Assembly: GCF_036507355.1 (NCBI RefSeq)
Contig: NZ_AP027877.1
Direction: 5' to 3' (one strand)
Source: Escherichia coli
Lineage (GTDB): Bacteria; Pseudomonadota; Gammaproteobacteria; Enterobacterales; Enterobacteriaceae
Length of the DNA: 64,000 bases
The number at the start of each line of letters is the position of its first letter. The first letter of the stretch is position 1. Below the pieces are notes generated by a model that was not told where the DNA came from, did not search any database, and saw nothing but the letters and a program-made list of their open reading frames with translations. The position numbers and the translations under genes are program-made. Positions 12,986-54,814 of the stretch are shown here, one piece after another.

Positions 12986-13675
12986 TTAAAAGCGGGTTGA
13001 AAAACGATATCCTGTACCGCGCACGGTCTGCACCATGCGGTCATGCCCGCCGGGCTCCAGTGCTTTACGCAGGCGACGAATGTGGACATCGACCGTACGA
13101 TCTTCCACATACACGTTGGTTCCCCAGACGTGGTTTAACAGCTGCTCGCGGCTGTACACGCGCTCAGGATGCGTCATAAAAAAGTGCAGCAGTTTAAATT
13201 CAGTTGGCCCCATCTCCAGCGGTTCTTCGCCTGCCATCACCCGGTGAGATGTCGGGTCGAGACTTAGCCCCTGCATCTCAATCACCTCTTCCACCGCCAT
13301 CGGCGATATACGGCGCATTACCGCTTTGATTCGCGCCACCAGCTCCTTCGGCGAAAACGGCTTGGTGATATAGTCATCCGCACCGGTTTCAAGGCCGCGC
13401 ACGCGATCTTCTTCTTCCCCTCTGGCGGTCAACATCACAACCGGAATATCACGGGTCATCGACTCACGCTTGAGATGTTTGATGAACTGGATACCGGAGC
13501 CGCCGGGTAACATCCAGTCGAGGAGAATTAAATCCGGCCAGGGTTCATTCAGTTGGTTCACAGCACTGTCATAATCTTCCGCTTCGACCGGCTGGAAGCC
13601 ATTTTGCTCGAGCACGAAGCAGACCATTTCGCGAATTGGAGCTTCATCTTCTACGACCAGAATACGTCTCGCCAT
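12986..13675 (-). CDS. phoB: phosphate regulon response regulator
   Basis: 229-aa [45 protein letters not shown]..., recognised PhoB. Confidence 0.96.
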
Positions 13676-13730
13676 GATTTGCCCTGTTGTAATAAATAGA
13701 TTGCGATCATTAATGCGACGTCATTATGCG

Positions 13731-13757
13731 TCAGATTTGTGACAGATTTATGAAAAG
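13731..13757 (-). promoter_or_regulatory. Pho box (PhoB binding site) in phoB promoter
   Basis: Minus-strand sequence TTTTCATAAATCTGTCACAAATCTGAC = tandem CTGTCAT-like 7-bp repeats with 4-bp spacers, ~70 bp upstream of phoB start. Confidence 0.7.
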
Positions 13758-13864
13758 CACGCCGCACATCCTTTCAGGTTATTGATTTCCGTGGTGCAGA
13801 AAAAAGCAAATAGCGCACCTGTTTGGGTATAATCGCGCCCATGCTTTTTCGCCAGGGAACCGTT

Positions 13865-15067
13865 ATGCGCATCCTTCACACCTCAGACTGGCATCTCGGC
13901 CAGAACTTCTACAGTAAAAGCCGCGAAGCTGAACATCAGGCTTTTCTTGACTGGCTGCTGGAAACAGCACAAACCCATCAGGTGGATGCGATTATTGTTG
14001 CTGGTGATGTTTTCGATACCGGCTCGCCGCCCAGTTACGCCCGCACGTTATACAACCGTTTTGTTGTCAATTTACAGCAAACTGGCTGTCATCTGGTGGT
14101 ACTGGCAGGAAACCATGACTCGGTCGCCACGCTGAATGAATCGCGCGATATCATGGCGTTCCTCAATACGACCGTGGTCGCCAGCGCCGGACATGCGCCG
14201 CAAATCTTGCCTCGTCGCGACGGGACGCCAGGCGCCGTGCTGTGCCCCATTCCGTTTTTACGTCCGCGTGACATTATTACCAGCCAGGCGGGGCTTAACG
14301 GTATTGAAAAACAGCAGCATTTACTGGCAGCGATTACCGATTATTACCAACAACACTATGCCGATGCCTGCAAACTGCGCGGCGATCAGCCTCTGCCCAT
14401 CATCGCCACGGGACATTTAACGACCGTGGGGGCCAGTAAAAGTGACGCCGTGCGTGACATTTATATTGGCACGCTGGACGCGTTTCCGGCACAAAACTTT
14501 CCACCAGCCGACTACATCGCGCTCGGGCATATTCACCGCGCACAGATTATTGGCGGCATGGAACATGTTCGCTATTGCGGCTCCCCCATTCCACTGAGTT
14601 TTGATGAATGCGGAAAGAGTAAATATGTCCATCTGGTGACATTTTCAAACGGCAAATTAGAGAGCGTGGAAAACCTGAACGTACCGGTAACGCAACCCAT
14701 GGCAGTGCTGAAAGGCGATCTGGCGTCGATTACCGAACAGCTGGAACAGTGGCGCGATGTATCGCAGGAGCCACCTGTCTGGCTGGATATCGAAATCACT
14801 ACTGATGAGTATCTGCATGATATTCAGCGCAAAATCCAGACATTAACCGAATTATTGCCTGTTGAAGTATTACTGGTACGCCGGAGTCGTGAACAGCGCG
14901 AGCGTGTGTTAGCCAGCCAACAGCGTGAAACCCTCAGCGAACTCAGCGTCGAAGAGGTGTTCAATCGCCGTCTGGCACTGGAAGAACTGGATGAGTCGCA
15001 GCAGCAACGTCTGCGGCATCTTTTCACCACGACGTTGCATAGCCTCGCCGGAGAACACGAAGCATGA
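13865..15067 (+). CDS. sbcD: DNA repair exonuclease SbcCD nuclease subunit D (track ORF extended upstream; start taken at [12 protein letters not shown])
   Basis: Mre11-like phosphoesterase motifs (DWHLG, GDVFD, GNHD); overlaps sbcC start; divergent from phoB. Confidence 0.93.
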
Positions 15068-21681: not shown

Positions 21682-22137
21682 TTATTCGCTACGGCGGGCA
21701 ATAATTTTTAGCGCAGCAATATTATGCGTTTTACGCCGTAACTGATCGAATCGTCTCATCCCTATTCGCCTGTCAGCAGCACGCAGAATATTCACTAACC
21801 CCCATTTATCGCTGGTAAATTGTTTTGTTAACAGCTCCGCTTTTGGGGTATCAATATATTCACGCAATAAATCAGAAATTGAACAAATATCCGTCAGGTA
21901 AGGATACCAGCAAGTTTCACCGTGAAAATTACGCACTCCACCGTTACCTGCAATAAAGTCTTTCGGGTAATCCCAGATCACGTTTTTATCCAACGTGATC
22001 CAATAACGCGGTAAATCGGTGCTTCCACCATTTTGGCTGCGCATGGGATAACGGGTACAGTGAATTTGCAGGTTGATCGTTGGCGTCAGTAAGTCATAGA
22101 TCTCCCGCTGTAACTTGCTCCATGGACGTTGTGTCAT
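21682..22137 (-). CDS. hypothetical protein, 151 aa, distal gene of an AT-rich accessory operon (possibly the counterpart of K-12 ykiA, unverified)
   Basis: Intact ORF; start ATG overlaps the stop of the upstream 169-aa ORF by 4 nt (ATGA), indicating translational coupling; below-average GC. Confidence 0.6.
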   Translation of the reverse strand: MTQRPWSKLQREIYDLLTPTINLQIHCTRYPMRSQNGGSTDLPRYWITLDKNVIWDYPKDFIAGNGGVRNFHGETCWYPYLTDICSISDLLREYIDTPKAELLTKQFTSDKWGLVNILRAADRRIGMRRFDQLRRKTHNIAALKIIARRSE

Positions 22138-22643
22138 TGTTTTTCCTCAAGCCGGTGACGCGCTTCACTGCGAATTTTCCGCGTTGCCCCGGTTTTCACT
22201 AAATCACGTAACAGCGAAAGATCGGGTTGTTCGACAAATAAGAGTAATGATGGATCCTCTTTTAACCACGCCGTTTTCACATCGGCAGCCAGCTGTGGAT
22301 TATTAATAGCCAGCGACCGATCCTGAGGCTCAGTCAATGTCGTTAACAACGACGCCGGGGTATGTGCGTTGCGTAATGCCGTTTGGCGCAAATGATCATT
22401 GCGACTTTGCAGCAATGCACGCCACCATTCATCATCTGATTTATCTTTTATCGTCGCCAGTTCCGCAAAAATATCGCTATCCTCACGGTTCCAGCGGTGT
22501 AATCCTCTTTCACTTTGCCTACGGGTGCTATTTTTCATACTGACAACAGACAGCGCCCAGTCAGAGTTGAAGCGATACTGTTGATCGAGTTTGTTGATAA
22601 TTCCGGAAGATAAATCTTTATTATCAAATAATTGGTTACGCAT
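22134..22643 (-). CDS. hypothetical repeat-containing protein, 169-aa frame; probably the C-terminal part of the upstream large ORF after a frameshift
   Basis: Frame overlaps the 3' 109 nt of ORF 22535-24154; product continues the same Leu/Arg-rich helical repeat character (HTPASLLTTLTEPQDRSLAINNPQLAADV...). Confidence 0.5.
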   Translation of the reverse strand: MRNQLFDNKDLSSGIINKLDQQYRFNSDWALSVVSMKNSTRRQSERGLHRWNREDSDIFAELATIKDKSDDEWWRALLQSRNDHLRQTALRNAHTPASLLTTLTEPQDRSLAINNPQLAADVKTAWLKEDPSLLLFVEQPDLSLLRDLVKTGATRKIRSEARHRLEEKQ

Positions 22644-24201
22644 TCGATAGCGGTATTCAGCGGGTAAATCAACCGTAAATCAATGGCATTATTTAACATC
22701 TCTTCGTCAACAACACCATTATCAATCAGCGCCAGCTGTACTTCGTAGGCTTGCTCTTGATCTTCTTGCCGTTTGCTCATCATTAAATTTAATGTGCGTT
22801 GCCATAACTGTTTCTTATATTCCAGCGGCAATAATTTATCGCGTGCCAGCTCATCCCAGACGGTGGGAACATCATGCTGAGTCAGTAGATAACTAATTAC
22901 TTCCCTCGATGTCAGATAACGCGCACCTTCGCGCAAATTGTGCACATCTTCTTTTGCCAGAGACAGTTGACGCATCTCCGGCAACGCTATCAATAACGCC
23001 TTTACGATATTTTTATTTTCTTTATTATCCAGATACATTTGTTCTGCGATACGTTCAATATCCTCTGTACGCAGGGTTGCTGACAGTTGGGTAATTTTTA
23101 ATTCAGTAAGCGTCCGGGCTAATGCTTCACGAACTTTCAGTGATTTATCTTTACTCAACATCACTGCTTGTTGTGCGGTTAAATCTGCTCCGGTAATTCT
23201 TTCACGTAACTCCGGGTCTTCGTTATTTATCAACTCATCGGCCACTGCAGTCGGAACCAGCCAGGCGTAATCGTAATGGCTGAGTAATGTCTTGCGTACA
23301 CTGAGAAAGGGGCTATGACTTAACGACGCAACAATATCTGGAGAAAGATTATCCTGTCTGGCCTGCTCCAGCTGTACGCTCTCGACGGGTACAGACATTA
23401 ATTTTTTATTCACATCGGCGGAAATATTACTGTTTTTAACCAGCCCTCTGGCAACAGCCTCATCTTTAATTAATTCATCGGTAAGCAAATGCATCTGTTG
23501 AGCGGGCCAGGACTGCGCCATCGATTCACGCGTCTGGTCATCGGGGTGCTGTAACAGTTGCAGCATAACGGCGGGTGATAAACTCTCTGTATGAGTCAGA
23601 AAACGCGCCACCAGTGGATCTTGATGCTTTATTTTATTCGCTGGGAAATTATCGAGTTTCCCCGTTTCAATCCATTTTAATTTCTCATTAATTTCAGGAG
23701 CGGCTTTATCTCGAAAAAGCGGTAAACCCTGAACGATGTTGTCTGCGACGCTATCATAGTCAGGATACGCATTGGAAATGTTATCGGTTTCGATTTCAGT
23801 GTGATCATAAAGATCGGCAGTCACCAGTGAATAGGATTTTTGAATATTCTCATCCCAGTTATATCCTTCACCACTTCCATCTTCATTGATATAAAATTCA
23901 GCTTTAATGACTTCAAATTGCGTTGCTTTATCGGAAACAATAATGCCTCGCGCACTAATTCCCTTCATCACTTCAAAGTTATGATCATTGTAATCAGCAT
24001 AAACTAAACCTTTCGCTGTCATCTGTCCTTTGACATACGCGAAATCATGATTAATAAAGTTATCGACAATAACATTACCTAATACAATCAGATGACCATT
24101 ACCTGACAGATAATCATCATAATCGCCGGAAATCGTTAAATTACCGTTCACCACCAGTTTATTTTGATTGCTGAAGTTAGCGGGTAATGATAGGTCACCA
24201 T
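22535..24201 (-). pseudogene. large repeat-rich (HEAT/LRV-like helical repeats, by-eye call) protein gene, N-terminally truncated by IS1 and probably frameshifted near 22680
   Basis: Reading frame is open upstream of the annotated GTG (24154) straight into the IS1 end at 24202 with no start codon; repeated motifs of type LSPDIVASLSHSPFLSVRKTL / DPELRERITGADLTAQQAVMLSKDKSLKVREALA; AT-rich. Confidence 0.6.
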
Positions 24202-24216
24202 GGTAATGACTCCAAC

Positions 24217-24720
24217 TTATTGATAGTGTTTTATGTTCAGATAATGCCCGATGACTTTGTCATGCAGCTCCACCGATTTTGAGAACGACAGCGACTTCCG
24301 TCCCAGCCGTGCCAGGTGCTGCCTCAGATTCAGGTTATGCCGCTCAATTCGCTGCGTATATCGCTTGCTGATTACGTGCAGCTTTCCCTTCAGGCGGGAT
24401 TCATACAGCGGCCAGCCATCCGTCATCCATATCACCACGTCAAAGGGTGACAGCAGGCTCATAAGACGCCCCAGCGTCGCCATCGTGCGTTCACCGAATA
24501 CGTGCGCAACAACCGTCTTCCGGAGCCTGTCATACGCGTAAAACAGCCAGCGCTGGCGCGATTTAGCCCCGACATAGCCCCACTGTTCGTCCATTTCCGC
24601 GCAGACGATGACGTCACTGCCCGGCTGTATGCGCGAGGTTACCGACTGCGGCCTGAGTTTTTTAAGTGACGTAAAATCGTGTTGAGGCCAACGCCCATAA
24701 TGCGGGCTGTTGCCCGGCAT
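24217..24720 (-). CDS. insB: IS1 transposase InsB (expressed as InsAB' by -1 frameshift)
   Basis: 167-aa [19 protein letters not shown]..., recognised IS1 InsB. Confidence 0.93.
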
Positions 24721-24914
24721 CCAACGCCATTCATGGCCATATCAATGATTTTCTGGTGCGTACCGGGTTGAGAAGCGGTGTAAGTGAACTGCAGTTGCCA
24801 TGTTTTACGGCAGTGAGAGCAGAGATAGCGCTGATGTCCGGCGGTGCTTTTGCCGTTACGCACCACCCCGTCAGTAGCTGAACAGGAGGGACAGCTGATA
24901 GAAACAGAAGCCAC
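24639..24914 (-). CDS. insA: IS1 protein InsA
   Basis: 91-aa [46 protein letters not shown]..., recognised IS1 InsA. Confidence 0.95.
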
Positions 24915-25141
24915 TGGAGCACCTCAAAAACACCATCATACACTAAATCAGTAAGTTGGCAGCATCACCCAGATGACCAATATATTAATTCTATTCATAA
25001 TCTTCAATGATATTTATATCAACCTTGATGAATTATGAATATATCGGAAATTGAAAAAATCGCAGCAAAGGAAATATTATTATGGGTTAAAGAGATGATA
25101 TTTCAGAAAAATGCCCTCCCGTTCAAGGGGAAGGCGAGGAA

Positions 25142-30001: not shown

Positions 30002-30322
30002 TCAGGCGGCTTTCTTGAGGCAGGCGCTCATAAACTTATTACGATCATCACCTTTCAGTGATTGTTGCGTTGCTTGATTATTACATTCGCGCATCTTTTG
30101 CTGCTGTGGCGTCAAACTTTTTTCACCAGGCGCAGACTTGCTGTTCTTCAGGCAATCACTTATGTAGGTCTTACGAGCATCCCCTTTCAACGCCTGTGCC
30201 GTCGCCTGCTGATTACAGGAGGTCATACGCTGTTGTTGTGGGGTTAACGTTCTCTCGGCAGCACCGACGGTGGTTAAAAAAACCAGACCGAAAAGCAAGG
30301 TAACCAGTAATGTAATTTTCAT
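30002..30322 (-). CDS. psiF: phosphate starvation-inducible protein PsiF (start taken at MKITLLVTLLFG)
   Basis: Secreted small protein with duplicated CNxQA motif; immediately downstream of phoA. Confidence 0.9.
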   Translation of the reverse strand: MKITLLVTLLFGLVFLTTVGAAERTLTPQQQRMTSCNQQATAQALKGDARKTYISDCLKNSKSAPGEKSLTPQQQKMRECNNQATQQSLKGDDRNKFMSACLKKAA

Positions 30323-30440: not shown

Positions 30441-31856
30441 TTATTTCAGCCCCAGAGCGGCTTTCATGGTGTAGAAGAGATCGGTCTGGTCGGTCAGTCC
30501 AACGACATTGGCGGCATGCGGGCCATACGCCGCAATACGCAACTGACTGCCGGTATGTTCTTGTGAATCCTCTTCGGAGTTCCCGTAACTCATCACCATC
30601 ACTGCGCCATCTTTGGTATTTAGCGCCTGGGTGAGGCCCGGAGCTTTAGTATCCGGCGCAACAATCTGGCTGGCGTGGGCGTGATCAGCGGTGACTATGA
30701 CCAGCGTGTTACCCTCCTTTTTAGCGAATTCCAGCGCCCGTTGTACGGCTTCATCGAGATCGACCGTCTCGCCAATTTGCCCACAAGGATTCGCAGCATG
30801 ATCCTGTTTATCGATTGACGCACCTTCAACTTGCAGGAAAAAGCCTTTCTCATTTTTACTCAACAATTCAATGGCTTTGTCGGTCATCTGCGCCAGGGTT
30901 GGTACACTGTCATTACGTTGCGGATTAGGCGTACAGGTGACTGCGGGCTTATCAATATTACCGTGGTACGTTGCTTTCGGTCCTAGCCAGCGCACTGGCA
31001 TATTGCCGTCAGCAAACAGGCCAAGCAGGGGTTTTTGCTGATTCGCTTCCGTCACCGCATTTAGCGAGGCGGCATCGTTCACCAACTGATAACCACGCGC
31101 CTGTGCCTGTTCACGCAGCGTTTTTCCCTGCCATTCACCTGCGGTTGCCGTTTCAGCAAAGGTTTTTGCACCACCGCCAAGCGTAACGTCGGCACGAGCG
31201 TTAAGCAGCTGTTCGGTAATCGATCCTTTTCCGCCTTTTTCCAGAGCGTTACCCGGACATTTTTCACTGGTCGCGCCCGGACCGTAGCATTTGCGCGAGG
31301 TCACATGCGCCACCAACGCAGCGGGCGTGGCATCCTGCAACTCTGCGGTAGAAACGTTACCGGTCGCCAGACCTGCGGCTTTTGCCATTTCCAGAATCGT
31401 TGGGTGATCTTTTTCGTGAATATCGACGCCCAGCGCGCCGTTATAGGTTTTGACACCGGTTGACCAGGCGGTTGCTGATGCAGCCGAGTCGGTGACGTAG
31501 TCCGGTTTGCCGGTTTTTTTATTCAGCGCATAGTGAGTGTATTGCCCGGTAAGCGGTAAGGCATCGATACCTTTAAAAAAGCCGCCCGCACCTTCGGCAT
31601 AATTGCGTGCGGCAGTAATTTCCGAATCCCCCATCCCATCGCCAATCAGCAAAATAATATTTTTTGCAGGTTTATCGCTAAGAGAATCACGCAGAGCGGC
31701 GGTCTGATCAGCCGTTAAGCGGCGAGCACCGCCGGGTGCAGTAATATCGCCCTGAGCAGCCCGGTTTTCCAGAACAGGCATTTCTGGTGTCCGGGCTTTT
31801 GTCACAGGGGTAAACAGTAACGGTAAGAGTGCCAGTGCAATAGTGCTTTGTTTCAC
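30441..31856 (-). CDS. phoA: alkaline phosphatase (GTG start at [21 protein letters not shown])
   Basis: Signal peptide followed by [18 protein letters not shown]...; active-site region [12 protein letters not shown]; recognised PhoA. Confidence 0.96.
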
Positions 31857-31918
31857 TTTATTTTCTCCATGTACAAATACATTAAAAAATAAAAACAAAG
31901 CGACTATAAGTCTCGGCC

Positions 31919-31936
31919 GTGACAACTTTATGACAG
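31919..31936 (-). promoter_or_regulatory. Pho box in phoA promoter
   Basis: Minus-strand CTGTCATAAAGTTGTCAC ~60 bp upstream of phoA GTG, matching the PhoB-binding consensus. Confidence 0.75.
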
Positions 31937-31956
31937 TTGTTGAAAAGATTAACTTT

Positions 31957-32217
31957 TTACTGACGAGGATGCTTCAATAACTTCTTTACGTAATCGCGCA
32001 GCAGCTCCGTATCGTCGTCAGGAATGCTGGCATCGGGCTTTACCTCGTACAGCGCCCCCTCTACCTGATCAATCAACCGCTGTTGGTCATTTTGCGCCAT
32101 ATTGCGAAGCATTGCAGTGACGATAATCTCCAAAGCTTCTACCTGCGCACACAGTTCTTTCGACTCTTCTTCTTTTTGGGCAAGCTTAAATAACAACTCA
32201 GCAATGAGATTTTTCAT
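31957..32217 (-). CDS. iraP: anti-adapter protein IraP
   Basis: 86-aa [43 protein letters not shown]..., recognised. Confidence 0.93.
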
Positions 32218-38722: not shown

Positions 38723-38920
38723 AATTCTATTTTGCCAGGCTAACCAGTAAAAAGCGTCTCGCCAGAGTTGATTTTGTTCAATAAGCGTAATGGTTTGTTT
38801 GGCTGGTAGATGATATCCCGTACAATTTCCTTCTGATATTAATTTGTATGGTATATCGTTTTTCAGGTGATGCTGCCAACTTACTGATTTAGTGTATGAT
38901 GGTGTTTTTGAGGTGCTCCA

Positions 38921-39196
38921 GTGGCTTCTGTTTCTATCAGCTGTCCCTCCTGTTCAGCTACTGACGGGGTGGTGCGTAACGGCAAAAGCACCGCCGGACA
39001 TCAGCGCTATCTCTGCTCTCACTGCCGTAAAACATGGCAACTGCAGTTCACTTACACCGCTTCTCAACCCGGTACGCACCAGAAAATCATTGATATGGCC
39101 ATGAATGGCGTTGGATGCCGGGCAACAGCCCGCATTATGGGCGTTGGCCTCAACACGATTTTACGTCACTTAAAAAACTCAGGCCGCAGTCGGTAA
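38921..39196 (+). CDS. insA: IS1 protein InsA
   Basis: Identical to the InsA of the other IS1 copy. Confidence 0.95.
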
Positions 39197-39618
39197 CCTC
39201 GCGCATACAGCCGGGCAGTGACGTCATCGTCTGCGCGGAAATGGACGAACAGTGGGGCTATGTCGGGGCTAAATCGCGCCAGCGCTGGCTGTTTTACGCG
39301 TATGACAGGCTCCGGAAGACGGTTGTTGCGCACGTATTCGGTGAACGCACGATGGCGACGCTGGGGCGTCTTATGAGCCTGCTGTCACCCTTTGACGTGG
39401 TGATATGGATGACGGATGGCTGGCCGCTGTATGAATCCCGCCTGAAGGGAAAGCTGCACGTAATCAGCAAGCGATATACGCAGCGAATTGAGCGGCATAA
39501 CCTGAATCTGAGGCAGCACCTGGCACGGCTGGGACGGAAGTCGCTGTCGTTCTCAAAATCGGTGGAGCTGCATGACAAAGTCATCGGGCATTATCTGAAC
39601 ATAAAACACTATCAATAA
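39115..39618 (+). CDS. insB: IS1 transposase InsB
   Basis: Identical to the InsB of the other IS1 copy. Confidence 0.93.
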
Positions 39619-39821
39619 GTTGGAGTCATTACCCGTTTTTCATTAAACCATCAGCCAGCCCCATAATATAAGGAGCCTGGGTAATACCGATAAGTACGTT
39701 TTCTTCTCTACGCAGAGAGATAACGCCCTCTAAAATAACGAAAGTATCTTCGCTATTGACATCACTGGAAAATATAACTTGCTTTTCATTATTAAACTCG
39801 AAGCGCGTACCGTATCTGGAC

Positions 39822-40132: not shown

Positions 40133-40150
40133 TGAATCGCCACGGATAAT

Positions 40151-40963
40151 CTAGACACTTCCGAGCCGTTGATAATACTGGTTTTCATATTCTGTCGGTG
40201 ACATCTGATCGCTGGAACCATGCCGACGCTTACTGTTATAAAACATTTCGATGTAATCAAAAATATCGCTGCGGGCTTCTTCCCGCGTTCCGTAGATCTT
40301 TTTCTTTATCCGTTCGCGTTTCAACAACTGGAAAAAGCTTTCTGCAACCGCATTATCATGGCAGTTACCGCGACGGCTCATGCTGCCATCCAGGCCGTGT
40401 GATTTCAGGAACGACTGCCACTCATGGCTTGTGTACTGACTGCCCTGATCCGAATGAACCAGCACCTGTTTTTGGGGATTACGGCGCCATACAGCCATCA
40501 GCAGTGCGTTCAGGACAATGTCCTTTGTCATCCGGGATTGCATGGACCAGCCGATAATTTTGCGTGAGAACAGATCAACAACCACGGCAAGATACAGCCA
40601 GCCTTCGTGGGTCCTGATGTAGGTTATGTCCGTTACCCAACGCTTATCCGGAGCATCCGGATTGAACTGTCGCTGGAGCCTGTTGGGCGACACGATACTG
40701 GCCTCGCCTTTACGTGCCCGCGGGCTCCGGTATCCGACCTGAGCCTTTATCCCGACACGTTTCATCAGTCGCCAGACTCTGTTCACTCCGCACTGTTGCC
40801 CGCTGTCCCGCAGATCCAGATGGATTTTGCGATAACCATAGACGCATCCCGATTCCAGCCAGAACTGTTTAATCTGCCCTGTCAGCCTCAGGTCTGCCTG
40901 ATGGCGTTGTGAATGCGGCTGCTGAAGCCAGGCGTAAAAACCACTGGGATGAACATCCAGCAC
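40151..40963 (-). CDS. IS3-family transposase OrfB (DDE catalytic domain)
   Basis: 270-aa ORF with DITYI...WLYLAVVVDLFSRKIIGW, HSDQGSQYTS and ...DNAVAESFFQLLKRE motifs characteristic of IS3-family integrase core. Confidence 0.9.
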   Translation of the reverse strand: MLDVHPSGFYAWLQQPHSQRHQADLRLTGQIKQFWLESGCVYGYRKIHLDLRDSGQQCGVNRVWRLMKRVGIKAQVGYRSPRARKGEASIVSPNRLQRQFNPDAPDKRWVTDITYIRTHEGWLYLAVVVDLFSRKIIGWSMQSRMTKDIVLNALLMAVWRRNPQKQVLVHSDQGSQYTSHEWQSFLKSHGLDGSMSRRGNCHDNAVAESFFQLLKRERIKKKIYGTREEARSDIFDYIEMFYNSKRRHGSSDQMSPTEYENQYYQRLGSV

Positions 40964-41019
40964 CCGACAGAGCAGGCGAACAGGCCAGCAACAGGTGTTG
41001 TCACGGATAAAGGCGTACC

Positions 41020-41298
41020 TCAGTCGGACAGCTTTGCGAAGTACGCCGCGGCTTTTTTTAATATGTCCCGTTCGTCGGTAACCCGCTTCAGCTCTTTCTG
41101 GAGACGGCGGATCTCGGCCTGAGCATCTGACTGTTCTTTATTAGCGGAAGAATCCGGACCGTACTTCTTTATCCAGGCGTAAAGGCTGTGGGTGGTGATA
41201 TCGAGACGTGTTGCAACGCTGGCAACAGAATAACCGCGATCAACAACCTGTTTGACTGCTTCAATTTTAAACTCTTCGGGATAACGCTTACCGCTCAT
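41020..41298 (-). CDS. IS3-family transposase OrfA (HTH DNA-binding, leucine zipper)
   Basis: MSGKRYPEEFKIEAVKQVVDRGYSVASVATRLDITTHSLYAWIKKY...ILKKAAAYFAKLSD. Confidence 0.9.
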   Translation of the reverse strand: MSGKRYPEEFKIEAVKQVVDRGYSVASVATRLDITTHSLYAWIKKYGPDSSANKEQSDAQAEIRRLQKELKRVTDERDILKKAAAYFAKLSD

Positions 41299-41360
41299 GG
41301 GCACCTCTCTTTAAGCCATCTTAAATGACTCTGAGGTGTCTGTTAAACCCGTGGCGATTC

Positions 41361-41699
41361 ACCATGAATCAGGGAGTTGCTGATGTTCAACTGGTTTGTT
41401 GTTCCATCAGTAAAGTCATGATTCAGGTAATATGTAGAGATAGCCCCGTTAACAGTGTCACCATTAAAGGTGGTATCGAAATCACCGTTTGTGTTGTTAT
41501 AGTAGACAAAGCCACTATAATTCACATAGTTACCATCTACAGTACCCGGTGCATCCATATTGCTCCAGTCAAGAGCAGTAGTTGGATTGTCGTAATAAGT
41601 CCAGGTGTCATAAGTAGTTGCATTAGCCTGAGAGGTGATAGCCAGAGTGCAAGCCAATGCTAATTGTGATACTACAAGTTTCTTTTTCCAGGAGTGCAT
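41361..41699 (-). pseudogene. yaiT: autotransporter N-terminal fragment (signal peptide + start of passenger domain; yaiT-like remnant) running into the IS3-family element
   Basis: MHSWKKKLVVSQLALACTLAITSQANA signal peptide followed by Thr/Asn/Tyr-rich passenger-like sequence; the last 5 codons and stop are supplied by the IS terminal repeat. Confidence 0.55.
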
Positions 41700-46719: not shown

Positions 46720-47021
46720 GATTGTCTGCTCCCCTGTCTTGTTATGGGAGCAGTATTTCGTTGCGGGTCAGTTTGATAAAGGAATTAAAAGGTCTTGTTA
46801 AGAACAAAGCGTTTTTAGAAAAAAATCGGCAATGGTTAGCGAGTTTGCGCATTTTGCGGTTTTGGCGAACGTATCCCGCCGGTTCACAAGCCAGATAATA
46901 TGTGCGCGCTCCGGCAAATTATTGCCATTTTGTTACATCCATTCCATATCTGTCGCTGGTTGATTGCCAGCGCCGCGCCGTGATGCATGATAGGAGAATT
47001 AGATAATAAGAGAAGAAAAGT

Positions 47022-47651
47022 ATGATTCGGGTAGTGCTGGTGGATGACCATGTGGTGGTGCGCTCTGGCTTCGCACAATTACTCTCTCTGGAAGACGATC
47101 TGGAGGTCATTGGTCAGTACAGTAGTGCCGCGCAGGCATGGTCGGCATTAATCCGTGATGACGTCAATGTTGCCGTCATTGATATTGCCATGCCGGACGA
47201 AAACGGCCTCAGTTTGCTTAAGCGCCTGCGTGCACAAAAACCGCAATTTCGCGCCATTATTCTTAGCATTTATGACGCGCCAACCTTTGTGCAAAGCGCG
47301 CTGGATGCCGGTGCCAGCGGGTATTTAACCAAACGCTGTGGGCCGGAAGAGTTAGTGCAGGCGGTGCGCTCGGTCGGGCTGGGCGGGCATTATCTCTGTG
47401 CCGATGCGATTCGGGCTTTACGCGGCGGCGGGCAATCCGCCCAGGCGCTGGAAATTCTCACCCCGCGAGAACGTGAAGTGTTTGATTTACTTGTCAAAGG
47501 AGACAGCGTTAAAGAGATCGCCTTTAAACTCGAACTCAGTCATAAAACGGTACATGTGCATCGCGCCAATGTGCTGGGAAAACTGAACTGCCATAGCACC
47601 ATTGAACTGGTACATTTTGCGCTCGACCACCATCTGCTGGCGGGGCATTAA
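47022..47651 (+). CDS. UhpA-like NarL/FixJ-family response regulator (paralog, not canonical uhpA)
   Basis: 209-aa ORF MIRVVLVDDHVVVRSGFAQLL...; receiver domain plus LuxR-type HTH (EIAFKLELSHKTVHVHRANVLGKL); clearly similar to but distinct from K-12 UhpA. Confidence 0.85.
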   Translation: MIRVVLVDDHVVVRSGFAQLLSLEDDLEVIGQYSSAAQAWSALIRDDVNVAVIDIAMPDENGLSLLKRLRAQKPQFRAIILSIYDAPTFVQSALDAGASGYLTKRCGPEELVQAVRSVGLGGHYLCADAIRALRGGGQSAQALEILTPREREVFDLLVKGDSVKEIAFKLELSHKTVHVHRANVLGKLNCHSTIELVHFALDHHLLAGH

Positions 47652-49192
47652 TGTCGCGCAATCTTCGTCATTGGGTGATTTCGCTGTTTATTGTGCTGGC
47701 CTGGGGAACCGGCTGGCTGATGCTGTGGACGCTCAGCTTTTATCTGACCAATAACGGTCAACAGGCGGTGTTGTTTCTCCCGCAGGGAGTTTATCTCGCC
47801 CTTGTTATTTTGCTCTCTCGCCGCTACTGGCCTGCGTTGGTGCTCCCCCCTTTGCTGATGATGTTCTGGCTCCATAGTGAACAGCTATTGAACGGTTATC
47901 TCATGCTGGCAACGCCGATTATTAGCCTGTTTCCTGTCCTCCTTGCGCAAAACTTCTGGCACCGTTTTCCACTTTACTGGCAGCGTCTGACGTTGCTGTT
48001 AGCCACTGTCACGGCAGCTTCATTGTTGAATACCGCCCTGCTCTCCCCTTTTATGTCAGGCCCAATAATGCTGCCGGGTTTGACCTCATTTACCGGCGGC
48101 GTATTACTGACGCCGTTTGTCTATCTTATCTTTGAGTTTCTGCGCCAGCAGCATCGCTACCAGCTCCTGGGACTCGATACGCATAATCCCCCCTTGCGTA
48201 CCTCTTTAATCATCTGGTGTAGCCTGTTTTTTATTATTGGTATCGGCACTCAGATGGTGCTGTCACCTGAAATTGAACGTCTGCTGTTGATCGTGGTCTT
48301 TTTGCCCAATGTGGTGATGGCGTGGAAATTTGGCTGGCAAGGTGGCGTACTCTCCGGGCTTTTGGGCAGCATGATGATCACCATCGCCCGCCAGATTGGC
48401 GTGGGCTTTAGTAACCTGGTGGAGCTGGAGATTTTCCTCGCGACCCAGGCCTTGCTGGGAATTGGCCTGGGCATTGCCATCAGTCGCCAGCAACATCTGG
48501 CGCTAAACCTGCACCATTACCGACAACGGCTGGAGGCCGAGCTGGCAGCGCGGCGGGCATTGGCGGAAAAGCTGATCCACACCGAGGAGGACACGCGAAA
48601 AAACCTGGCGCGAGAGCTGCACGACGAAATCGGTCAGAACATCACCGCCATTCAGATCCAGTCGCAACTGGTGAAGCGGGCGCGTGATCCGGCGCAAATT
48701 CAATCCGCAGCCAGCCAAATCAATGAGCTCGCCCGCCGCATTCATCTCTCCACCCGCCAATTGCTGCGCCAGTTGCGGCCTCCCGCGCTTGATGAACTGA
48801 CATTTCGCGAAGCGTTGTTGCATCTGATTAATGAATTTGCCTTTAGTGAACGCGGCATTCATTGCCAGTTTGCCTATCAACTGAACTCCACACCAGAAAA
48901 CGAAACGGTGCGCTTTACCTTGTATCGGTTATTACAGGAGTTGCTCAATAACGTCTGTAAACACGCCGAAGCCAGCGAAGTGACGATTATCCTGCGCCAG
49001 CAGGGAGAGGTATTGCATCTGGAAGTCAGCGACAACGGTGTGGGGATCGCCAGCGGGAAAATGGCCGGATTTGGCATTCAGGGGATGCGTGAGCGCGTCA
49101 GCGCCCTGGGCGGCGACTTAACGCTCGAAAAACAGCACGGCACGCGGGTAATTGTTAACTTGCCCACATTTTTGCAACAAATCGCCGGATAA
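47651..49192 (+). CDS. UhpB-like membrane sensor histidine kinase
   Basis: 513-aa ORF, N-terminal multi-TM domain, H-box ELHDEIGQNITAI, C-terminal HATPase; start overlaps regulator stop (TAATG). Confidence 0.85.
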   Translation: MSRNLRHWVISLFIVLAWGTGWLMLWTLSFYLTNNGQQAVLFLPQGVYLALVILLSRRYWPALVLPPLLMMFWLHSEQLLNGYLMLATPIISLFPVLLAQNFWHRFPLYWQRLTLLLATVTAASLLNTALLSPFMSGPIMLPGLTSFTGGVLLTPFVYLIFEFLRQQHRYQLLGLDTHNPPLRTSLIIWCSLFFIIGIGTQMVLSPEIERLLLIVVFLPNVVMAWKFGWQGGVLSGLLGSMMITIARQIGVGFSNLVELEIFLATQALLGIGLGIAISRQQHLALNLHHYRQRLEAELAARRALAEKLIHTEEDTRKNLARELHDEIGQNITAIQIQSQLVKRARDPAQIQSAASQINELARRIHLSTRQLLRQLRPPALDELTFREALLHLINEFAFSERGIHCQFAYQLNSTPENETVRFTLYRLLQELLNNVCKHAEASEVTIILRQQGEVLHLEVSDNGVGIASGKMAGFGIQGMRERVSALGGDLTLEKQHGTRVIVNLPTFLQQIAG

Positions 49193-49264
49193 CCAGGAAA
49201 AAGTCTTAGGTATCCCGGATTTTCTCTCATCCCCTTTCACTTTCATTTTCATATAGTCAGCAAC

Positions 49265-50581
49265 ATGGAGACAACCATGCACGCGCGTTCAGCGAGAGAA
49301 ATTAATCAATGCTACCGGACATTACGTCCGCGATTGCTGATGTGCATGATTATTGGCTACGCCGCATTTTATCTGACGCGAAAAAGCGTGAATTACGTCC
49401 TTCCGGCGCTACAAACCGACCTCGGACTGGATAAAGGCGACATTGGCCTGCTGGGTTCGCTGTTTTATCTCAGCTACGGATTGTCGAAATTTACCGCCGG
49501 ACTGTGGCATGACAGCCACGGACAACGCGGTTTTATGGGCGTCGGCTTGTTCGCCACCGGGTTATTGAACGTGGTGTTTGCCTTTGGCGAATCACTTACG
49601 CTTCTGCTTGTGGTCTGGACACTGAACGGTTTTTTTCAGGGCTGGGGATGGCCACCGTGTGCCCGCTTGCTGACCCACTGGTACTCACGCAATGAGCGCG
49701 GTTTCTGGTGGGGCTGCTGGAATATGTCGATCAACATTGGCGGAGCGATTATTCCGCTGATTAGCGCCTTTGCCGCCCACTGGTGGGGCTGGCAGGCCGC
49801 GATGCTGACACCGGGGATAATCAGCATGGCATTAGGGATCTGGTTAACGCTACAACTCAAAGGCACGCCCCAGGAAGAGGGATTACCGACAGTTGGTCAC
49901 TGGCGTCACGATCCGCTGGAGTTACGTCAGGAACAACAAAGTCCGCCGATGGGGCTGTGGCAAATGTTGCGCACCACCATGCTGCAAAATCCGCTGATCT
50001 GGCTACTGGGCGTCTCTTATGTACTGGTTTATGTGATCCGGATTGCGCTTAACGACTGGGGCAATATCTGGCTGACGGAAAGCCACGGTGTCAACCTGCT
50101 CAGCGCCAACGCCACGGTAATGCTGTTTGAAGTGGGCGGCTTACTCGGCGCGTTATTTGCCGGATGGGGATCGGATTTGCTGTTTAGCGGGCAACGAGCG
50201 CCAATGATTTTGCTGTTCACGTTGGGGTTGATGGTGTCAGTCGCCGCACTGTGGCTGGCACCGGTTCATCACTACGCTCTGCTGGCAGTGTGCTTTTTTA
50301 CCGTGGGCTTTTTCGTCTTTGGCCCACAAATGCTGATTGGACTTGCGGCGGTGGAGTGTGGGCACAAAGCTGCGGCGGGTTCAATCACCGGATTTCTCGG
50401 CCTGTTCGCTTACCTTGGCGCGGCGCTGGCAGGCTGGCCGCTGTCGCTGGTCATCGAACGCTACGGCTGGCCGGGAATGTTCAGTTTACTCTCGGTCGCC
50501 GCAGTACTTATGGGTTTACTGCTGATGCCGTTACTGATGGCGGGCATCACCACCACTCACGCTCGAAGGATAAAACAATGA
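49265..50581 (+). CDS. UhpC-like MFS membrane sensor/transporter
   Basis: 438-aa 12-TM MFS ORF resembling UhpC/UhpT organophosphate:phosphate antiporter family. Confidence 0.8.
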   Translation: METTMHARSAREINQCYRTLRPRLLMCMIIGYAAFYLTRKSVNYVLPALQTDLGLDKGDIGLLGSLFYLSYGLSKFTAGLWHDSHGQRGFMGVGLFATGLLNVVFAFGESLTLLLVVWTLNGFFQGWGWPPCARLLTHWYSRNERGFWWGCWNMSINIGGAIIPLISAFAAHWWGWQAAMLTPGIISMALGIWLTLQLKGTPQEEGLPTVGHWRHDPLELRQEQQSPPMGLWQMLRTTMLQNPLIWLLGVSYVLVYVIRIALNDWGNIWLTESHGVNLLSANATVMLFEVGGLLGALFAGWGSDLLFSGQRAPMILLFTLGLMVSVAALWLAPVHHYALLAVCFFTVGFFVFGPQMLIGLAAVECGHKAAAGSITGFLGLFAYLGAALAGWPLSLVIERYGWPGMFSLLSVAAVLMGLLLMPLLMAGITTTHARRIKQ

Positions 50582-51609
50582 AAATGACCTTTACCTCTAC
50601 TCTGATTGCTTCTGCCGTTGCGCTGGCGACTTTAACGGGTGCCGCGCAGGCAAAAGGCCGGCTGGTGGTCTATTGCAGCGCCACCAATGAAATGTGTGAG
50701 GCCGAAACCAAAGCGTTTGGCGAGAAATATGATGTAAAAACCTCGTTTATCCGCAACGGTTCCGGAAGCACCCTGGCAAAAGTCGATGCTGAAAAGAAAA
50801 ACCCCCAGGCTGACGTCTGGTACGGCGGCACTTTAGACCCGCAATCGCAGGCTGGCGAGATGGGCCTGCTACAGGCGTATAAATCCCCTAACCTTGAGCA
50901 GATCATGGAGAAATTCCGCGATCCGGCAAAAGTGAAAGGGAATCTGTCCTCTGCCGTTTATGTGGGGATCCTCGGTTTTGGCGTAAACACCGATCGTCTG
51001 AAAGAGAAAAACCTGCCGGTGCCGAAGTGCTGGAAAGATCTCACCAAACCGGAATATAAAGGCGAAATTCAAATTGCCGATCCGCAAAGTTCCGGTACTG
51101 CCTACACCGCCCTGGCTACTTTTGCGCAGCTGTGGGGGGAAGATCAGGCCTTTGATTATCTAAAACAACTGAACGCCAACGTCTCTCAGTACACCAAATC
51201 AGGCATAGCCCCGGCACGTAACGCCGCCCGTGGCGAAACGGCGATTGGTATTGGCTTCCTGCATGACTACTCGCTGGAAAAAGAACAGGGCGCGCCGCTG
51301 GAGTTGATTTCCCCGTGTGAAGGTACAGGCTACGAAATTGGCGGCGTCAGCATTCTGAAAGGCGCGCGCAACCTCGACAACGCCAAACTGTTTGTGGACT
51401 GGGTATTATCAAAAGAAGCGCAGGAACTGGCATGGAAGAAAGGGAAGTCTTATCAGATCCTGACCAATACCACCGCCGAAACGTCGCCAAACTCACTGAA
51501 GCTCGACGACCTGAAATTAATCAACTACGACATGGACAAATACGGTTCCACGGATGTTCGTAAGGCATTGATTAATAAATGGGTTAGCGAAGTAAAAATG
51601 GGTAAATAA
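50578..51609 (+). CDS. afuA: periplasmic substrate-binding protein of AfuA/FbpA family (ABC importer; likely sugar-phosphate rather than ferric iron)
   Basis: 343-aa product with signal peptide MKMTFTSTLIASAVALATLTGAAQA; ATG overlaps uhpC-like stop (ATGA); followed by two-domain permease and ATPase. Confidence 0.7.
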   Translation: MKMTFTSTLIASAVALATLTGAAQAKGRLVVYCSATNEMCEAETKAFGEKYDVKTSFIRNGSGSTLAKVDAEKKNPQADVWYGGTLDPQSQAGEMGLLQAYKSPNLEQIMEKFRDPAKVKGNLSSAVYVGILGFGVNTDRLKEKNLPVPKCWKDLTKPEYKGEIQIADPQSSGTAYTALATFAQLWGEDQAFDYLKQLNANVSQYTKSGIAPARNAARGETAIGIGFLHDYSLEKEQGAPLELISPCEGTGYEIGGVSILKGARNLDNAKLFVDWVLSKEAQELAWKKGKSYQILTNTTAETSPNSLKLDDLKLINYDMDKYGSTDVRKALINKWVSEVKMGK

Positions 51610-51677
51610 ACCCGCATTAGGCGCATTTGCCGGGTGCAGCGCAGACGCCTGCCCCGGCCAACCATACCGGAACTGCT

Positions 51678-53756
51678 ATGTCACAGACACTTGCACTCCA
51701 TCCCGTGAAAAAGCGGGATGCGATTTTCCTTTGGGTTTTGCTGGGCTGGCTGGCATTTATACTGTTGCCGAGCTGGAGCCTCGATTATGGCCTGCTGGAG
51801 TCCACGAGTGATGAGATCCTCGAGGCTTATGGCTGGTCGCATTTTAATATCAGCTGGCTGTGGTATTTGTTACCGAGTCTGTTGCTGGTTCGCCCGTTTC
51901 GTGAGGCCACACGCGAACAGCGTAGTCGTCATTATTTTGATGCCGGCTGGGCATTGCTCTGTATGGCGTTTATCGTCATCAGCGCCACCGTGGTTGGACG
52001 CGGTTTAGGCTACGCCGCCATCGTGCTGTTTGTCGAACTAGGCGCGATTATGACGCTGGCCTTAACCCGCCTCGAATGGCTGGGTGGCGACCGCTTCGTG
52101 ATCGGCTCACTGATTGCGATTGTGGCGCTGATTGGCATTTTTATCGTCTGGCCGAGCATCGCCATTTTTATCCCGATGTTCACCAACGACGCGGGAGAGT
52201 TCGCCCCGCTGGCGTTTATGACCGTGCTCTCGCAGGCACATATTGTTCAGGTGATCGTCAACTCTATCGTCTTGTCGATAGCGGTGGGGATAGGCTGTAC
52301 TTTCTTCGGCCTGGTGCTGGCGATTTATACCACGCGCATCGCTAAACGCAGCGCCATTATTGGTCGCATCTTTTCCATTTTGCCCATCGTTACGCCACCG
52401 TTTGTGGTCGGCTTAGGCGTGACGCTCATGATGGGGCGCTCCGGCTATGTTACGGAATTTATGGTGGAGTGGTTTGGGCTGACCAACACCAACTGGCTGT
52501 ACGGTTTTACCGGGATCTGGCTGGCACAGGTTCTGGCATTCACGCCAATGGCATTTATGATCCTCGACGGGGCCATTAAAACCATTCATCCCTCGCTGGA
52601 AGAGGCCTCCTACACCCTGCGCGCCAGCCGCTGGCAAACCTTTAACGGCGTGTTTGTGCCGTTGTTGAAGCCCGCACTCGCCAATGCCTTTTTAATCGTC
52701 GTGGTACAGTCACTGGCTGATTTCAGTAACCCGCTGGTACTTGGCGGTAACTTCGACGTACTGGCGACGCAAATTTACTTCTATATTACCGGCTCGCAGC
52801 TGGATTATCAGGCCGCCAGCACCCTTGGCGCTTTCCTGCTGCTGTTCTCGCTGCTGGTGTTCTGCATCCAGTATATGTGGATTGGTAAACGCTCTTACGT
52901 CACGGTTTCCGGCAAATCCTACCGTGGCGACGTCCAGCCGCTACCGGTCACCCTGGTGTGGAGCGTGGTCGCCATACTTGCGATATGGATTGCCTTTAAC
53001 GCCCTGCTCTACGGCAGCATTTTCTACGGCAGCTTCACGGTGAACTGGGGCGTGGACTACACCCTGACGCTGGATAACTTTATCAAGCTATTTGGTCAGG
53101 GAATGAGCGACGGCGCCTGGCCTTCACTGCTGGATACCCTGCTCTACGCCGGGATTGCCGCTCCCATTACCGCTATCTTTGGCCTGCTCATCGCCTGGGT
53201 GGTGGTGCGTCAACAATTCAAAGGCAAAAAGACCATCGAGTTCACCACCATGCTGTGCTTTGCCGTACCGGGTACGGTGGCGGGCGTTTCGTATATTCTT
53301 GCCTTTAACAGCGCTCCGGTTTATCTCACCGGAACGGCGGCAATTGTGATTATCTCGATGGTGATGCGTAACGTTCCGGTGGGTATTCGCGCCGGGATTG
53401 CGGGTCTGGGGCAGATCGACAAATCGCTGGATGAAGCCTCACTCAGCCTGCGCGCGGGTTCACTGCGAACCATTACGCACATTTTACTGCCGCTGCTGCG
53501 CCCGGCCATTCTCTCGGCCCTGATCTACAGCTTTGTGCGGGCCATCACGACGGTCAGCGCCATCGTCTTTCTCGTCACGCCGGACACCCGCGTGGCAACC
53601 GCCTACATTCTTAACCGCGTTGAAGACGGCGAATATGGCGTAGCCATCGCCTATGGTTCGATTCTGATCGTGGTGATGCTGGCGATTATTTTCCTCTTTG
53701 ACTGGCTGATCGGAGAAGCTCGTATCTCCCGTTCTAAAGCCAAAAACCAGGCGTAA
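51678..53756 (+). CDS. afuB: ABC transporter permease, duplicated 6-TM domains (AfuB/FbpB type)
   Basis: ~692-aa polytopic protein with two permease repeats; start may be up to 17 codons upstream. Confidence 0.7.
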
Positions 53757-54814
53757 TGGAGCGCACTATGAGTCAGAAAAATTTTGTTGAACTGCGCAAC
53801 GTCACTAAACGATTCGGCAGTAATACGGTTATCGACAATATCAATCTCACCATTCCACAAGGGCAAATGGTGACGCTGCTCGGTCCTTCCGGCTGTGGCA
53901 AAACCACCATTTTGCGTCTGGTTGCCGGGCTGGAAAAACCGAGCGAAGGGCAAATTTTTATTGATGGCGAAGATGTCACGCATCGTTCCATTCAACAGCG
54001 CGATATCTGCATGGTGTTTCAGTCATACGCTCTGTTCCCGCATATGTCGCTGGGTGAAAACGTTGGCTACGGGCTGAAGATGCTTGGCGTGTCGCGTAGC
54101 GAAGTGAAACAGCGGGTGAAGGAGGCGCTGGCAATGGTGGATCTGGAAGGCTTCGAGGACCGCTATGTCGATCAGATTTCCGGTGGTCAGCAACAGCGTG
54201 TGGCACTGGCCCGCGCGTTGATCCTCAAGCCAAAGGTGCTGCTGTTTGATGAGCCGTTAAGTAACCTCGATGCCAACCTGCGCCGCAGTATGCGCGATAA
54301 GATCCGCGAGCTGCAAAAGCAGTTTAATATCACGTCGCTCTACGTCACTCACGATCAAAGTGAAGCTTTCGCGGTGTCCGACACTGTGCTGGTGATGAAT
54401 AAAGGTCACATCATGCAGATTGGCTCACCGCAGGATCTCTATCGTCAGCCAGCCTCCCGATTTATGGCAAGTTTTATGGGCGACGCCAACCTGTTCCCGG
54501 CGAACTTTAGCGAAGAGTATGTCGATATCTACGGTTATCGCCTGCCGCGCGCGGCGCATTTCCCGGCGCAAGGTAGCGGCACCGTCGGCGTTCGCCCGGA
54601 AGCCATCACCTTAAGCAATCACGGCGAAGAGAGTCAGCGTTGTGTTATTCGCCATGTCGCCTACATGGGGCCGCAGTACGAAGTGACCGTAGAGTGGCAT
54701 GGACAGGAGATTTTATTACAAGTAAACGCCACCCGTTTACAGCCCGATATTGGTGAGCACTATTACCTCGAAATCCATCCTTACGGGATGTTTGTTTTAG
54801 CGGATGCGGCATAA
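53756..54814 (+). CDS. afuC: ABC transporter ATP-binding protein (AfuC/FbpC/PotA type)
   Basis: Walker [10 protein letters not shown], signature [15 protein letters not shown], Walker [12 protein letters not shown]; start overlaps afuB stop (TAATG). Confidence 0.8.

Follow-up and report, generated by a model that had tools for sequence, protein, structure and literature searches.

The Pho boxes of phoB and phoA are among the best-characterised bacterial activator sites. The box of the Escherichia coli K-12 phoB promoter reportedly goes back to Makino in 1986, and head-to-tail binding of PhoB and its contact with sigma-70 region 4 are said to rest on the work of Blanco in 2002 and on the 3T72 complex. 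PhoB~P dimers bind head-to-tail on two half-sites and recruit RNA polymerase via sigma-70 region 4 (summarised in PMC10294691), and both K-12 sites correspond to PhoB ChIP-seq peaks, that of phoB at 417093 with a score of 11 and that of phoA at 401676 with a score of 20 (PMC10294691 Table 1), recorded in a strain with a tagged and partly functional PhoB. RNA-seq values in K-12 are 310,112 for phoA in the wild type and 1,548 in delta-phoB, and 32,731 and 34, respectively, for phoB (PMC10294691). A weak auto-repression site at the K-12 phoB promoter is defined by EMSA (KD 4.9 uM) and by promoter mutants with a repression phenotype (Gao & Stock 2018, PMC6194859), and transcriptionally inert PhoB sites are described within genes (PMC10294691). 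The strongest PhoB site is that of the pstS promoter, which has two tandem Pho boxes with four good half-sites, the best box scoring 23.6 bits with the matrix used below.

The stretch of E. coli DNA analysed here (64,000 nucleotides; the window) is a chromosome segment inverted relative to K-12. It begins with tgt, queA, acpH, a 473-aa ORF, malZ, proY, brnQ, phoR, phoB and the divergent sbcDC, continues through araJ, mak, rdgC, aroM, aroL, proC, adrA, psiF, phoA, iraP and ddlA, and ends with sbmA, ampH, tauDCBA, an afu-like island, frmAB and the mhp genes (coordinates of the features discussed are in Table 1). The content given in the original prediction, phoBR and phoA-psiF, is borne out by synteny with annotated E. 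coli records, which extends over phoR, phoB, sbcDC, psiF, phoA and iraP; the assignment of phoA and psiF to one operon follows PMC10294691. A cognate PhoB/PhoR pair is thus encoded in the window. Its PhoB is identical to that of K-12 at 229/229 residues, all 22 nucleotide differences in the gene being synonymous, and the K-12 motif is therefore directly applicable. Residues 124-229, the C-terminal DNA-binding domain, match the PhoB of PDB entries 1GXP (PhoB-DNA) and 3T72 (PhoB-sigma4-DNA).

Table 1. Genes, promoter elements and PhoB matrix (PWM) matches in the window.
Feature	Coordinates	Strand	PWM score (bits)	Remarks
phoR	11633-12928	-		co-transcribed sensor kinase gene; adjoins phoB
phoB	12986-13675	-		ATG at 13675
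psiF	30002-30322	-		downstream gene of the phoA-psiF operon
phoA	30441-31856	-		GTG start at 31856; 471 aa
phoB Pho box	13739-13756	-	20.95	TTTTCATAAATCTGTCAC = TTTTCAT-AAAT-CTGTCAC; two 7-bp direct repeats, 4-bp A/T spacer
phoB box, PWM rank 1	13738-13755	-	20.95
phoB spacer		-		AAATCTGACG; 10 bp, between Pho box and -10
phoB -10 hexamer	13723-13728	-		CATAAT; 10 bp downstream of Pho box
Third, degenerate phoB repeat	13728-13734	-		CTGACGC; one 11-bp period past the proximal half-site, in the spacer between box and -10
PhoB auto-repression site (weak)	13719-13733	+ (antisense to phoB)		CGTCA-TTATG-CGTCA = CGTCATTATGCGTCA; overlaps -10
phoB-internal PhoB site, PWM rank 3	13556-13573	+	16.56	GTTCACAGCACTGTCATA; codons 35-40 (YDSAVN), antisense orientation
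phoA Pho box	31919-31936	-	19.87	CTGTCATAAAGTTGTCAC = CTGTCAT-AAAG-TTGTCAC
phoA box, PWM rank 2	31918-31935	-	19.87
phoA spacer		-		GGCCGAGACT; 10 bp, between Pho box and -10
phoA -10 hexamer	31903-31908	-		TATAGT; 10 bp downstream of Pho box
tauA/afu-island intergenic match, PWM rank 4	46920-46937	-	14.17	TGTAACAAAATGGCAATA
uhpA-like gene			6.3	best sense score
uhpB-like gene			5.4	best sense score
uhpC-like gene			0.8	best sense score
afuA			1.3	best sense score
afuB			6.2	best sense score
afuC			-0.3	best sense score

Tandem CTGTCAT-type repeats had been predicted upstream of phoB (13731-13757) and of phoA (31919-31936), at textbook positions. Both are present there, with the amendment that they can be read as CTGTCAT solely on the minus strand, on which phoB and phoA are encoded, and both are orthologues of the K-12 Pho boxes, from which the phoB box differs by 1 base and the phoA box by 0. 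The phoA interval is exactly CTGTCATAAAGTTGTCAC on the minus strand. The phoB interval reads CTTTTCATAAATCTGTCACAAATCTGA on that strand and does hold the box, flanked by a single upstream nucleotide and by 8 nt of spacer, the latter including part of the third pseudo-repeat, CTGACGC; it further takes in part of the auto-repression site described at the -10 (PMC6194859). In each promoter the box stands in the place of the -35, 10 bp above the -10 and oriented with the gene. A search for a sigma-70 -35/-10 consensus pair returned none in the phoB promoter region and none in the phoA promoter region, which fits promoters where an activator site substitutes for the -35.

The phoB promoter shares with pstS the half-site grammar and the 11-bp periodicity, as does that of phoA, and like pstS it runs into a third degenerate repeat, but unlike pstS both phoB and phoA have a single full box each. 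A repeat finder detects the 11-nt period at phoB as TGCGTCAGATT and TGTGACAGATT (13727-13748), and CTGACGC scored together with the proximal repeat as an 18-mer gives 12.6 bits. The CTGACG of this third repeat is kept in Enterobacter, Citrobacter, Salmonella-type, Pantoea and Photorhabdus loci. The same repeat finder, run with a 6-nt seed, reports no repeats at phoA, because the stretch common to the two phoA repeats is TGTCA, 5 contiguous bases, and so shorter than the seed; its silence is not evidence against the box.

Compared with K-12, the phoB promoter has the same locus, orientation, spacing, -10 hexamer, CGTCA tracts of the repression site and PhoB protein, and differs in its proximal repeat, which is CTGTCAT in K-12 and CTGTCAC in the window (T to C at one Y position). 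The ~81-84 nt from box to ATG carry 2 substitutions and the 108 nt above the box 9, the latter falling in the upstream, non-functional half of the intergenic region. At phoA the window agrees with K-12 throughout the 18-bp box, spacer, -10 and 5' leader, and the base directly upstream of the box is G in K-12 and A in the window. The exact 45-mer of the phoA promoter is present in 27 complete E. coli genomes, whereas some strains, such as IAI39, have CTGTCATAAAGCTGTCAC instead.

Only 20 nt separate the iraP stop codon from the phoA Pho box downstream of it, which is placed directly in the 3' flank of iraP, and no terminator-like hairpin was found between the two (31937-31959, minus strand). The iraP gene is induced by phosphate starvation by a PhoB-independent route.

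Three matches to the consensus CTGTCATAWAWCTGTCAY with at most 3 mismatches are found in the 64 kb, all at the phoB and phoA promoters, and the phoB and phoA boxes have 2 mismatches each. Shuffled sequences give a mean of 0.15 matches, and 0/100 shuffles reached three. A matrix scan had been proposed in the original prediction, with refutation considered not applicable; the latter was wrong in principle, as the claim was testable, and it passed. We built the matrix from the 59 PhoB binding sites in Table 1 of PMC10294691 (Fitzgerald et al. 2023, E. coli K-12 ChIP-seq), removed the 3 sites of this region to leave 56, and scanned both strands. The phoB and phoA boxes rank 1 and 2, and each exceeds every one of 300 dinucleotide shuffles, in which the highest score is 19.38 bits and the median of maxima 14.4. 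Rank 3 is a site inside phoB, which the original prediction had overlooked while correctly placing the other two. In the orthologous K-12 interval (376-419 kb) the three highest matches of the same matrix are the only three ChIP-seq peaks (401676, 417093 and 417245), and beyond these no score in that interval exceeds 12.8.

Conservation was followed at phoB in 29 gamma- and beta-proteobacterial loci among the matches listed, a sparse sample with no other Escherichia species. In 28 of these 29 listed loci the 350 bp upstream of phoB contain a sense box scoring 12.5 bits or more (median 17.2), compared with 2/29 for the antisense control (median 7.5), and in 24 of the 29 the start of the best -10-like hexamer falls exactly 9 nt beyond the 18-mer. 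Four more Enterobacterales loci (Salmonella-type, Citrobacter farmeri-type, Jejubacter and Pantoea) have TTTTCATAAA(T/A)(C/G)TGTCAT followed after 10 bp by CATAAT. For phoA our comparison covers E. coli strains only, and conservation of its box over a wider range is described in PMC10294691 Fig. 9.

We conclude with a probability of about 95% that these are two PhoB-dependent sigma-70 promoters of the E. coli Pho regulon, with sequence, significance, orientation, spacing, conservation and PhoB identity all shown here. Direct repeats are bound by OmpR-family regulators in general, and the matches might thus be sites of another member of that family or chance resemblances, but nothing specific favours this, and the shuffle statistics for consensus and matrix, the orthology of both boxes to K-12 sites that are experimentally bound and regulated, and the conservation of the box across phyla in correct orientation and spacing leave it a negligible chance; it is effectively refuted already. 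It is extremely unlikely that the phoB box is bidirectional and also regulates the divergent sbcDC operon. The box does lie within the 189-bp intergenic region common to sbcD and phoB, and the peak is entered as sbcD/phoB in the ChIP-seq table (PMC10294691), but K-12 sbcD RNA is unresponsive (274 in the wild type and 271 in delta-phoB; PMC10294691), the box is antisense to sbcD at ~110 bp from its start, where the best sbcD-sense score is 6.9 bits, and activation from a Pho box requires a fixed orientation and spacing, as in most of the 29 listed loci (PMC10294691 discussion).

As two PhoB-dependent promoters, phoB and phoA would probably be occupied and activated, and phoB auto-repressed, in the window's strain as in the K-12 experiments on near-identical sequence. 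Under phosphate limitation PhoR would phosphorylate PhoB, and a PhoB~P dimer would bind head-to-tail on both 11-bp half-sites of each Pho box, each half-site consisting of a TGTCA-type tract followed by an A/T-rich spacer. Bound in place of the missing -35, exactly 10 bp above the -10 hexamer, PhoB would contact sigma-70 region 4 and recruit RNA polymerase. The phoB box would provide positive autoregulation of phoBR, the weak second site over the phoB -10 (13719-13733) would cap expression at high PhoB~P, and the phoA box would drive phoA-psiF.

This second site is present in the window as two antisense CGTCA half-site cores, 5 bp apart, over the -10. The K-12 EMSA oligo, AATGCGACGTCATTATGCGTCAGATTTAT, matches at 28/29 bases and both CGTCA tracts are intact. 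In Salmonella-type, Citrobacter, Enterobacter, Pantoea and Jejubacter loci the -10-distal CGTCA is replaced by CGCCA or TGCCA, and the complete element with two half-sites may therefore be Escherichia-specific.

The CTGTCAC form of the proximal phoB repeat is rare: the exact 45-mer of the phoB promoter that carries it occurs in 0/5,421 complete E. coli genomes, and that 45-mer is present in at least one other assembly. This rarity, the location of the base in a locally divergent patch (~96.5% identity versus ~99% elsewhere) and the presence of T at this position in all five other Enterobacterales loci with a TTTTCAT first repeat could suggest that phoBR autoregulation in this lineage has a measurably different strength or set-point owing to the change, which flanks the repression site as well. 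We regard this as highly unlikely, because C and T are nearly equally frequent here among the 59 bound sites (C in 24, T in 32) and the change costs 0.5 bit, Enterobacter sp. Bisph1 likewise has C, and the base falls just beyond the 11-bp repression half-site, with both CGTCA tracts unchanged; the variant is predicted to be neutral.

The divergent patch itself (~13001-14000) covers phoB and the phoB-sbcD intergenic region, and its ~96.5% identity is to a strain that is otherwise 99% identical. Among 5,424 complete E. coli genomes the best identity for phoB-sbcD is 97.4%, and flanking segments, including that of phoA, reach up to 99.4%. The patch looks like an imported or ancient allele. The 97.4% value had pointed to a Shigella or a non-coli Escherichia, a reading that was rejected because the phoA segment has 99.4% identity to E. 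coli, the divergence is confined to the patch, and NCBI records with the exact SbcD protein carry the label E. coli.

Outside the phoB and phoA regions the matrix gives no credible sense Pho box within 300 bp upstream of the 473-aa orphan ORF (best 8.4 bits) or of the afu-like genes (best 6.3 bits). Since the PhoB matrix recovers only the three bound sites, the strain-specific sugar-phosphate (afu-like) island and the orphan ORF appear not to be members of the Pho regulon. The fourth-ranked match was considered as an afu-linked Pho box and rejected: a shuffled window is expected to contain about 0.93 hits with 14 bits or more, which puts the match at chance level, its direction is towards tauA and away from the uhpA-like and afu-like genes, and no -10 occurs at the offset needed. 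The island DNA around it is without a K-12 counterpart, the K-12 homology ending 38 bp upstream of tauA.

The island (47022-54814, plus strand) encodes a UhpA-like response regulator, a UhpB-like kinase and a UhpC-like sensor, as well as the binding protein, permease and ATPase of an ABC transporter, and it replaces the K-12 yaiS-yaiO segment, with a junction 38 bp upstream of the tauA start. The 473-aa ORF (4876-6297, minus strand) lies between acpH and malZ, a place occupied in IAI39 by a 481-aa 'hypothetical protein'; it matches no NCBIfam or Pfam family, and its exact sequence is absent from a collection of 15 billion proteins. Two IS1 transposase ORFs of equal length and identical family scores and an IS3-family element are also present (~24217-24970, ~38870-39620 and ~40150-41600). 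One IS1 abuts a truncated DUF2773/ykiA-like gene (22134-24154), and the other IS elements replace the iprA-yaiT region between ampH and hemB.

The site inside phoB corresponds to the orthologous K-12 intragenic ChIP-seq peak at 417245, ATTCACAGCACTGTCATA (PMC10294691). Like the inert intragenic sites of K-12 (PMC10294691) it has no -10 hexamer at the activating distance, and an antisense promoter driven by it was rejected, the hexamer at that offset being TTCGAC, which is not -10-like. It differs from most of them in that Escherichia, Salmonella-type and Citrobacter loci conserve it at synonymous positions. When the 768 synonymous codings of codons 35-40 are scored for PhoB binding, the window ranks 1 and K-12 second best (TACGATTCCGCAGTTAAT is an example of a recoding without the site). 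Citrobacter werkmanii (rank 1) retains the site, as do C. farmeri-type and Salmonella-type loci (rank 7); Enterobacter sp. Bisph1 (rank 134) has lost it, as have all loci with a different peptide. Codon changes number 5/24 at the site versus ~45% gene-wide, and the binomial value of 0.013, which ignores shared ancestry and codon bias, is only suggestive as the site was chosen because it binds PhoB; synonymous conservation here is suggestive in the same degree. Fitzgerald et al. also noted conservation of the site and left undecided whether function or codon constraint accounts for it (PMC10294691). That it is a selected third operator of phoBR autoregulation rather than inert noise seems unlikely; in that case it might contribute negative feedback, for instance as a roadblock or a titration site.

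The phoB and phoA Pho boxes of the window are real, intact, ordinary and already known, and their importance beyond annotation is small. The practical value lies in a clean negative and in calibration of the PhoB matrix, which, derived from ChIP-seq, picks out precisely those three sites of this region that are bound in experiments, and no others. The apparent synonymous conservation of the site within phoB bears on whether any intragenic PhoB sites are functional.
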